Shown here: positions 23,680 through 26,120 of the stretch, piece by piece
Layout: every line of letters begins with the position of its first letter
Position numbering within the stretch: the first letter of the stretch is position 1
Assembly: GCF_044324785.1 (NCBI RefSeq)
Contig: NZ_CP172127.1
DNA length: 64,000 bases
Source of the DNA: Escherichia coli
GTDB taxonomy: Bacteria > Pseudomonadota > Gammaproteobacteria > Enterobacterales > Enterobacteriaceae
Strand: one strand, 5' to 3'
Translations under genes and position numbers: made by a program
Notes under the pieces: model-generated
What the model saw: only the letters and a program-made list of their open reading frames with translations
The model's database searches: none
Told to the model about the DNA's origin: nothing

Positions 23680-24418
23680 ATGGACGACACACAATTGCAG
23701 GCTCTGGCTAACGAACTGGCCAAAAATCTCAAAACCCCTGAAGATCTCAGTCAGTTCGATCGCCTGCTCAAGAAAATAAGTGTTGAGGCAGCTCTCAACG
23801 CTGAACTGACTCACCATCTGGGACATGAAAAAAATCAGACCAAATCGGGAACCAACTTCCGTAATGGCTATTCCACGAAAACCGTCACCACTACCGACGG
23901 GCCGATGGAATTACGTACTCCACCTGATCGTGATGGTTCCTTCGAACCACAACTGGTGAAGAAAAATCAGACCCGCATTACCGGCATGGACAACCAGATC
24001 CTGGCGCTGTATGCCAGAGGGATGACTACCCGCGAAATTACCTCAGCCTTCAAAGAAATGTACGACGCCGATGTCTCGCCCACGCTGATATCCAAAGTGA
24101 CCGATGCGGTTAAAGAACAGGTCTCTGAATGGCAAAACCGACCGTTGGATGCACTGTATCCCATTGTTTATCTTGACTGTATTGTGGTTAAGGTTCGTCA
24201 CAGCGGGAGTGTCATTAACAAAGCGGTGTTCCTCGCGCTGGGCATCAATACCGACGGTCAGAAAGAGCTGCTGGATATGTGGCTGGCCGAAAATGAAGGT
24301 GCAAAGTTCTGGCTGAATGTACTGACGGAACTGAAAAATCGCGGCCTGAACGATATCCTTATCGCCTTCGTGGACGGCCTGAAAGGCTTCCCGGAAGCGA
24401 TTAATGCCGTCTATCCCA
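23680..24418 (+). pseudogene. IS256-family transposase, N-terminal about 246 aa, truncated by IS200 sequence
   Basis: MDDTQLQALANELAKNLKTPEDL...NAELTHHLGHEK...LDCIVVKVR...IAFVDGLKGFPEAINAVYP then loss of homology. Confidence 0.8.
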
Positions 24419-24650
24419 TAAAGCCGGATACGCTCATTTTGGGCGGGATCTCCACAAGCATATGGATATGATCTGCACAGCACTCAGCTTCAAGAATCCG
24501 TACACTTTTCCACTCACACAGCTTTCTCAAAATACTGCCTGTTGCTTTACGCTTCTCTCTGTAGAACACTTTTCTTCGGTATTTTGGCGCAAAAACTATG
24601 TGATATTTACAGTTCCATCGGGTATGCGCTAAGCTCTTTTCGTTCCCCAT
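24418..24650 (-). pseudogene. tnpA: IS200 transposase TnpA, N-terminal part only
   Basis: MGNEKSLAHTRWNCKYHIVFAPKYRRKVFYREKRKATGSILRKLCEWKSVRILEAECCADHIHMLVEIPPKMSVSGFMG; gene cut off at 24418. Confidence 0.75.
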
Positions 24651-24654
24651 TGGG

Positions 24655-24723
24655 ACCCCCTTTTGATTTCTTGTTTGACACTTGCAGTTGCCAGACCGCA
24701 AGGTGTTTTAACAAATCAAAAGG
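24655..24723 (-). promoter_or_regulatory. IS200 5' leader stem-loop immediately upstream of the tnpA start codon
   Basis: 12-bp arms CCCCTTTTGATT (24655..24666) and AATCAAAAGGGG (24712..24723) with 45-nt loop; RBS and ATG lie directly after the stem on the minus strand. Confidence 0.4.
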
Positions 24724-24739
24724 GGTTTTAATAACTGGC

Positions 24740-25787
24740 TCAAAGCTGAAAGCTTTCCGGCCCCCAGCCTAGCTGGGGTTTTTCTGTGCACAAAAATCCG
24801 GAAACGAGTGAGCGTTTCAGGATTCTTAAACAGACCCTGGATCGGTCAACTGCTCCTAAACTGATCGGCATTACACCTGTCGGCTGCCGTTTTTTCAGCT
24901 CCGTGATCCATGGGCCGGGTTCTTTGGTAAGCAATGCTGCCGCCCTTGCCCCATGGATAAATAATGTCCGGTGGTAGGTATCCCCACGTTTGCTTATCCC
25001 CAGCATGCGAACCTTCCCAGCGGACCCCGTCTGCTTCGGCACCAGACAGACATAAGCGTCAAACTCACGTCCGGATTTAAATGCTGAGGCCTCGCCCATG
25101 GTGGCGACCACCGCCGTAGCGATTAACGGCCCCACACCGGGGATTTCCATTAGGCGCTTACAGTTTTCGCTCTGCCGTGCCACGCTGTTAATCTGTTTAT
25201 CAAGGCCATCTATCTGCATGCCCAGCTCACTCAGTCTGTTGTACTGGTATTCAAGCACAGTGATGAGATACGGCGGCAGGTTCGTCTTCATTCGCTCTAG
25301 GGCTGTCGGTAGCTTTCTGTCCATCGCTGTCCAATCTTTGTGGAGGATTTCACCAAACTCGAGGAGCGTGCCAAGGGTATTAATATGCGAGGTTCTGAAC
25401 TTCACCAGTTGTCTGCGCGAACGGTGCAGGACCAGAACTGACTGCTTCTCTTCCGTTTTAACAGCGATATCTTTACTGGGCTGCTGTACCGCCATCCAGA
25501 TAGCACGCGCATCCATCACATCATTTTTGTTGCCCATGACGAATGCTTTAACGAAGCGAGCTTGCAACAGCCGAACTTTGTGTCCCAGTTTTTTCCAGTT
25601 CCCTCGCCCAATGTTGGGAGCCTCCACAAGCCTCCATACCTATCAGACAGGGTTCCCGGTTGCTGAAGAACGTCAGAAAATCCTTGCTACGTAGCTGCTT
25701 GTCCACCACTTCGCCCGTGTACTCATTGATGAAGTGAACCTGAATCAGATACTTTGCGATATCAACGCCAACCGGTGTATATTTCAT
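24740..25787 (-). pseudogene. IS110-family transposase, frameshifted near 25600
   Basis: N-terminus MKYTPVGVDIAKYLIQVHFINEYTGEVVDK...LIGMEACGGSQHWAREL (ORF 25548..25886), continuing in another frame with MEIPGVGPLIATAVVA...MLGISKRGD (ORF 24740..25627). Confidence 0.75.
24761..24783 (+). terminator. Hairpin followed by a T-run (rho-independent terminator-like), at the IS200 left end and the 3' end of the IS110-family gene
   Basis: CCCCCAGC-CTA-GCTGGGG followed by TTTTT on the plus strand. Confidence 0.35.
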
Positions 25788-26028
25788 TTGTGGAGTCGCC
25801 AGTCTGAGGGCGCTTTTGCATCCCGTATTGGGCACTATGATGCCGGAAATCTGAGAGGCTCCACAGCAGACAATTTTACCCTTCATCCATCACAGTGCAC
25901 CTCTCTTAACAGGGCAGGATGTGTTCAGTACATTTCTCCTTTTATGGTTACAGTTTATCCATCATGGCGTAATTGAAGGCTGTCGTGAAGGAGAGGAAGA
26001 GCATCTCATCACTTACAAACAAATACAT

Positions 26029-26047
26029 TAATGATAACCATTTGCAT
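26029..26047 (+). promoter_or_regulatory. Fur-box-like sequence upstream of sitA
   Basis: TAATGATAACCATTTGCAT resembles the Fur consensus GATAATGATAATCATTATC. Confidence 0.3.
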
Positions 26048-26066
26048 TTGTATAGATTATGCTATA

Positions 26067-26088
26067 AAACATAGCCGTTGCTATGTTT
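26067..26088 (+). promoter_or_regulatory. MntR box upstream of sitA
   Basis: Palindrome AAACATAGC-CGTT-GCTATGTTT, essentially the mntH-type MntR operator, about 35 bp before the sitA ATG. Confidence 0.5.
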
Positions 26089-26120
26089 GTTCTAATTTTG
26101 CTCACTATAGGTACTGAATT

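Follow-up and report, generated by a model that had tools for sequence, protein, structure and literature searches.

A 3'-truncated IS200 left end and its structured leader among nested insertion sequence fragments between sodC and sitABCD of Escherichia coli

The 5' leader of the IS200 transposase gene tnpA hides its own Shine-Dalgarno (SD) sequence and gives rise to small RNAs (Ellis 2015, PMC4513863; Ellis 2017, PMC5435999; PMC12594629). In the 707-bp IS200 as mapped by Ellis 2015, nt 12-34 form a left-end terminator, tnpA starts at about nt 40, nt 69-138 are the SD-sequestering inverted repeat, and the antisense RNA art200, earlier named STnc490, has its 5' ends at nt 153/154 (PMC4513863). 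In the same work, the nt 12-34 element is described as a Rho-independent terminator that acts in both directions and protects tnpA from transcription entering from outside, sequestration of the SD by the stem-loop was shown in Salmonella and E. coli constructs, and TnpA carrying Y125F is catalytically dead (PMC4513863). The 5'tnpA RNA is processed to tnpA-110 and tnpA-90, and processed species are still obtained when a construct contains no more than the first 200-255 nt of tnpA (PMC5435999). In Salmonella, 5'tnpA regulates invF and other regulons (PMC5435999, PMC12594629). Evidence for STnc490 as a stable Hfq-associated RNA comes only from Salmonella and from IS200 carried on plasmids in E. 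coli (PMC2515195, PMC4513863).

The locus described here lies between sodC and sitABCD on an E. coli chromosome of ExPEC/APEC type. Coordinates are those of the window, i.e. the whole stretch of 64,000 nucleotides that was analysed. A first-pass annotation of the same DNA had named IS200 and an IS110-family gene. Four nested IS fragments are present, not two, and the identity and boundaries of all four, together with the structures that they carry, were established in this analysis. Read along the minus strand, an IS110-family fragment (25936..24874) is followed by an IS4-like left end (24873..24793) and then by IS200 nt 1-381 (24792..24412). The features are as follows.

23605..24417, plus strand: IS1414-like fragment of the IS256 family, transposase gene from 23680 onward, C-terminus missing, head to head with IS200
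24412..24792, minus strand: IS200 (IS200C-like) relic, IS200 nt 1-381, with left end, 5' leader and first 79 tnpA codons
24414..24650, minus strand: truncated tnpA, ATG at 24650..24648, 79 of 152 codons and then a TAG made by the junction
24640..24729, plus strand: predicted template of the art200 antisense RNA, IS200 nt 153/154 back to about nt 64, by transfer from PMC4513863
24657..24725, minus strand: SD-sequestering stem-loop of the tnpA 5'UTR, the IS200 inverted repeat nt 69-138
24660..24781, minus strand: Rfam RF01405 (STnc490) match, in the sense orientation of tnpA, corresponding to IS200 nt 12-133
24740..24873, minus strand: spurious tail of the ORF 24740..25627, translating the IS4-like left end and IS200 nt 1-53
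24762..24783, no strand assigned: IS200 left-end hairpin and T-run, CCCCAGC-CTA-GCTGGGG at 24762..24778 and then TTTTT at 24779..24783
24793..24873, minus strand: IS4-like left end of 81-82 bp, IS4 nt 1 to about 81/82, with terminal inverted repeat TAATGCCGATCAGTTTAGG
24874..25936, minus strand: IS110-family (ISEc66/ISEc11-like) left end and transposase pseudogene, with a +1 frameshift near 25627 and a 3-nt deletion

The reading that best fits these features, with a probability of about 0.93, is that the hairpins belong to a 3'-truncated left end and 5' leader of IS200C type within a pile of broken mobile elements, and that their overlap with the IS110-family gene is an ORF run-on. Nothing in the locus is of a new kind, and standard pipelines (PGAP, Rfam) already annotate it or could do so.

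Aligned from 24796 to 24412, the IS200C reference is 97.2% identical to the relic, which holds nt 1-381, in support of the 3'-truncated IS200 that had been proposed here; over the same span Salmonella IS200F reaches 88% and Yersinia IS1541B 85%. The RF01405 match scores 129.1 bits against a gathering score of 56 (E = 9e-26) and takes in model positions 1-124 of 124. The positions published in PMC4513863 transfer onto the relic without gaps, a deletion of TT excepted. Since nt 12 falls at 24781, IS200 nt 1 is 24792 and the end of the relic, nt 381, is 24412. The first-pass annotation had suggested that a reference alignment be used to fix the left end, and this alignment, with 22 distinct flanks and the published numbering, sets nt 1 to within 1 nt; the uncertainty of +/-1 nt arises because the T at 24793 is invariant across all flanks. 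Both hairpins fall inside IS200 in the reference alignment, at nt 12-34 and nt 69-138, and both lie within 2 nt of where that annotation had put them. Past the end of the relic, agreement with the IS200 consensus first breaks at 24411/24410.

Truncation of tnpA is evident, as had been reported, with 79 codons instead of the reported 78 before the TAG created at the junction. The remnant matches Pfam Y1_Tnp over profile positions 2-69 of 121, keeping the HUH motif (HIH) and losing the region of the catalytic Tyr125. IS200C nt 388-712 have no match anywhere in the window, i.e. the right end with its sub-terminal hairpin is missing. Lacking both the right end and the catalytic Tyr region, the relic cannot transpose, and judged by its sequence the copy is a relic and not a complete element. 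A search of the whole 64 kb window likewise found no second IS200 copy, IS200 right end, remaining IS4 or IS110-family 3' end.

In the stem-loop directly upstream of the ATG, CCCCUUUUGAUUU (24725..24713) pairs on the minus strand with AAAUCAAAAGGGG (24669..24657), giving a lower stem of 13 bp, where arms of 12 bp had been described, with an upper stem above it. The segment 24723..24655 has a minimum free energy (MFE) of -25.2 kcal/mol versus -13.1 +/- 2.6 for 200 dinucleotide shuffles (z = -4.57, 0/200 as good), and the whole leader (24800..24640, 161 nt) reaches -59.3 kcal/mol (z = -3.47). The SD sequence AAGGGGGU, at 24662..24655, lies in the 3' arm. The first-pass annotation had correctly named SD sequestration and small RNAs as features of the IS200 leader (PMC4513863, PMC5435999, PMC12594629). 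When IS200C, IS200F, IS1541B and a diverged solo leader were compared, 91.6% of cells were paired versus 36-59% in slid controls. In the same leaders double changes are limited to 2 pairs, no more than in shuffles. The available leaders of the IS200 group are too similar to one another, and one of them is the source of the structure, so covariation gives no independent support.

Substitutions were counted against a consensus of 10 distinct IS200C copies. The stem-loop of the relic does not differ from this consensus, and from nt 35 to the ATG (about 110 nt) there are no substitutions at all, compared with about 7 changes in the retained coding part and 3 changed positions in the terminator hairpin. 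In the leader just two changes occur, C14A (24779) and the loss of TT33-34 (following 24761), each of them specific to this copy and located in the left-end hairpin. Together they weaken it: the relic hairpin has 7 bp and -13.7 kcal/mol versus 10 bp and -18.7 kcal/mol for the consensus. Taken alone its energy is unremarkable (z = -1.9, 10/200 shuffles equally good); the case for the left-end hairpin rests on homology. A hairpin plus T-run had been described here, and in the terminator scan the T-run does stand 3' of the hairpin, on the plus strand only, i.e. antisense to tnpA; the tnpA strand carries an A-run before the hairpin and no U-run after it. Going by the mechanism of the family, this is probably the sub-terminal hairpin recognised by TnpA. 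Because it is weakened, it may shield against upstream transcription less well than the hairpin of an intact copy does.

Compared with Salmonella IS200 and E. coli IS200C, the relic has the same left-end, small middle and SD-sequestering hairpins, the same SD box and ATG, the same N-terminal Y1 domain and the same insertion context directly 3' of a hairpin and T-run. It differs in stopping at nt 381, in having neither right end nor catalytic Tyr, and in the reduction of the left-end hairpin from 10 to 7 bp. With respect to RF01405 (STnc490/art200) and the 5'tnpA small RNA, the covariance-model match is full-length and the templates of both RNAs are kept.

The insertion context was examined in left ends gathered from 31 viral/prophage contigs and from E. 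coli, Salmonella and Yersinia copies, which gave 22 distinct flanks, two of them variants of one site. In all 22 the conserved sequence begins T|TGTG, the base before TGTG being always T and the base before that variable. For IS200C, IS200F and IS1541B, and in 22/22 flanks, the element is preceded, at a distance of a few bases, by a terminator-like hairpin, in most cases with a T-run after it. Over their last 40 nt the flanks average an MFE of -16.5 kcal/mol; 2000 control 40-mers drawn from the same loci average -6.5 +/- 3.7 kcal/mol (Mann-Whitney p = 3e-14). The flank in the window fits this pattern, with IS200 directly after GAAACGCTCACTCGTTTC-CGGATTTTT (24818..24793), the hairpin of the IS4-like leader (-12.8 kcal/mol). 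These data suggest target choice by the IS200 group at intrinsic terminators (hairpin plus T-run), or else survivorship of such insertions. No statement of a preference for terminator hairpins was found in the searchable full-text literature on IS200/IS1541 target choice.

A solo, diverged IS200-like leader of about 74% identity is present upstream of iss on the E. coli IncF/ColV-type plasmid pN17EC0320-2 (L039:1501-1634). It is unannotated and no transposase gene follows it; both hairpins and the SD box are there, and it too lies 3' of a hairpin and T-run. The same match occurs in other E. coli plasmids (at least 7 listed).

The DNA upstream of the relic is a third element. Its 24873..24792 segment is 91.5% identical to IS4 nt 1-82, its repeat matches the IS4 terminal inverted repeat TAATGCCGATCAGTTAAGG at 18/19 positions, and the fragment is about 90% identical to an insZ-like IS4 relic beside adhE. 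IS4 boundaries were derived from the 12-bp target duplication at a reference locus (L036). With IS4 (insG) and the insZ-like relic the fragment shares the first 81-82 bp, the terminal inverted repeat and the leader hairpin at 90-91%; only the left end is here, and IS200 takes over just before the transposase ATG.

The IS4-like leader also carries a promoter-like site, TTGACC-16-AAGAAT (24849..24822, minus strand), a consensus match only, which points into IS200. The leader's own hairpin (24818..24801, minus strand), followed by TTTTT, is flagged by the scan as terminator-like. A short transcript, or read-through into the left end of IS200, could arise from this arrangement.

Next to the first base of the IS4-like repeat, 24873, the IS110-family fragment ends at 24874. 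It is 81% identical in nucleotides to ISEc66 over 25936..24888, and both Pfam DEDD_Tnp_IS110 and Transposase_20 match the pseudogene. An alignment to an intact homologue had been proposed as a way to find the real stop of this gene; by BLASTP against the intact 339-aa ISEc66 transposase (79% identity), homology ends at ELKKRQPTG, residue 305/306, which is window position 24874, and the window does not include the native stop. The 3' non-coding end is missing entirely, as are the last 33 residues, consistent with the independent PGAP label 'frameshifted; incomplete; missing C-terminus'. The copy has the two domains and the 5' non-coding end in common with ISEc66/ISEc11 and differs from them in its frameshift and in the loss of its 3' part. 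Across 5,426 E. coli genomes, intact copies did not exceed about 81% identity; what matched at 90-95% were short fragments.

Within the IS110-family 5' non-coding end, 25797..25898 has matches of 83-93% to unannotated short fragments on many EHEC and other E. coli chromosomes. Those fragments may be solo left-end relics of related elements.

Having lost its own stop, the IS110-family ORF runs on to the next one, across the hairpin. It was correctly noted that the ORF 24740..25627 (minus strand) reads through the second hairpin. Its tail of about 43 residues (MPISLG...ESFQL; MPISLGAVDRSRVCLRILKRSLVSGFLCTEKPQLGWGPESFQL) shows no IS110-family homology and only chance BLASTP matches. From the alignment, the native stop codon of the recombinase is to be placed outside the window and the tail over the hairpin taken as fortuitous. 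The further claims of the first-pass annotation, that the IS200 leader overlaps the end of the IS110-family gene and that the recombinase C-terminus and the IS200/IS110 junction are ambiguous, do not hold. The gene is truncated at 24874, homology to ISEc66 ends at a defined residue, and an 81-82 bp IS4-like fragment lies in between, so there is no direct IS200/IS110 junction. Once the IS4-like left end is recognised, the supposed overlap and the ambiguous junction dissolve.

Hairpin and T-run could instead be the terminator of the IS110-family element, or a bridge/seek RNA encoded at its 3' end as in the IS1111 type, the ORF overlap then being real. The hairpin is indeed downstream of the IS110-family gene, on its strand and covered by its ORF, and PGAP now names such genes 'RNA-guided transposase'. 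Against this, the hairpin and its surroundings occur in every IS200C, IS200F and IS1541 copy examined, the 3' region of intact ISEc66 has no homologous sequence, and IS110-family homology stops 82 bp earlier, at the IS4 terminal repeat. Further, the T-run precedes the hairpin on the strand of the gene, and Rfam yields only STnc490 here. No intact IS110-family or IS4-family element with these hairpins in its own end was seen. Ownership of the hairpin by the IS110-family element is accordingly most improbable, at around one chance in a hundred on our estimate.

A bridge or guide RNA of the IS110 family was also sought by a permissive Rfam search of 24300..26100 and of the intact ISEc66 locus, which returned STnc490 and chance-level matches only.

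IS110-family elements are known for structure- or sequence-specific targets. The IS110-family element could on that account have inserted site-specifically into the IS200 left-end hairpin, in the manner of IS1111-group elements at REP sequences or inverted repeats, making the boundary a true transposition junction. The element is cut inside its coding sequence, 33 codons short, rather than ending at the junction, and the DNA adjoining it is the IS4-like terminal repeat and not IS200; such an insertion has hardly any likelihood. An ORF run-on through the adjoining IS fragments is the reading retained for the overlap. For annotation hygiene, the ORF 24740..25627 should not be taken as a recombinase with a novel C-terminus, nor the hairpins as an IS110-family guide RNA or terminator.

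On its other side the relic abuts the IS1414-like fragment, with match extents of 23605/23608 to 24416/24417 and IS200 homology from 24412. Up to 6 nt (TATCCC, 24412..24417) are common to the truncated IS1414-like gene and the truncated IS200. The shared TATCCC is consistent with deletion by microhomology. The most likely order of events, inferred as the most parsimonious reading, begins with insertion of the IS110-family element upstream of sitA. An IS4-like element would then have inserted in the IS110-family transposase gene, cutting off its last 33 codons, and IS200 would have inserted directly 3' of the hairpin and T-run of the IS4-like leader. Finally a deletion, possibly at the TATCCC microhomology, would have joined IS200 nt 381 to the truncated IS1414-like element, taking with it the rest of IS200 and IS4, the IS110-family 3' end and the 3' part of the IS1414-like element.

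None of the cis elements with a known action in the left end of IS200 is missing from the relic, which still has the structured 5'UTR and the hairpin described as blocking transcription in both directions. The presumed art200 promoter region (about 24590..24638) is also kept, with one substitution, C to T at 24624 (tnpA strand). Since processed species arise from constructs of 200-255 nt, truncation at nt 381 should not block processing. The start region of tnpA (about nt 40), the region of processing and both promoter and start of art200 are all still there, so that a 5'tnpA RNA of about 90-110 nt and an art200 of 90 nt could be made, as in Salmonella. Transcription from the IS110-family pseudogene or from the promoter-like site of the IS4-like leader would run first into the hairpin of that leader and after it into the weakened one of IS200. 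By analogy with Salmonella, expression of 5'tnpA or art200 from the relic is a plausible conjecture to which we would give roughly even odds.

The RF01405 model covers the tnpA sense strand and the left-end hairpin, and the published STnc490/art200 is antisense, from nt 153 to about nt 64 (Sittka 2008; Ellis 2015). RF01405 seems therefore to model the 5'tnpA strand rather than art200.

The 1.58 kb interval surrounding the relic carries the same composite at 99.7% identity or more in 53 complete E. coli genomes, in which PGAP annotates three adjacent pseudogenes, for IS256-family, IS200/IS605-family and IS110-family transposases. In some of these genomes, such as those of PK8276 (NZ_CP080146.1) and AR13438 (NZ_CP097170.1), the relic is the sole chromosomal IS200 sequence. 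Such a relic offers a natural single-copy, transposase-dead template for asking whether E. coli makes 5'tnpA or art200 and with what effect, a question that is hard to address in Salmonella because 6-7 identical IS200 copies are present there.

The relic could be kept as an orphan small-RNA locus (5'tnpA and/or art200) of benefit to the host and not as neutral debris, a role proposed for intact IS200 of Salmonella. The unchanged stretch from nt 35 to the ATG beside a changed coding part and terminator hairpin, the conservation of the composite in 53 genomes, some of them with no other chromosomal IS200, and the regulation of invF and other regulons by 5'tnpA in Salmonella (PMC5435999, PMC12594629) speak for it. 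On the other hand, the leader is the most conserved part among active IS200-group elements too, so that zero changes in about 110 nt are weak evidence for such a locus; a sit island inherited from a recent common ancestor can account for the near-identity among the 53 genomes; and the known targets (invF, SPI-1) are Salmonella genes. Benefit to the host is for these reasons considered unlikely. The same low likelihood attaches to its more specific form, in which ExPEC/APEC lineages with no other chromosomal IS200 would have kept the immobile relic beside sitABCD as a domesticated transposon leader, a 5'tnpA/art200 locus regulating in trans.

Two further Rfam matches fall elsewhere in the window. 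At 6057..6199 (minus strand) there is a full-length match (138 bits) to isrN, an sRNA that binds Hfq and was originally described from a Salmonella island. At 19666..19752 (plus strand) Intron_gpII (RF00029) matches with 64 bits, pointing to the presence of a group II intron.
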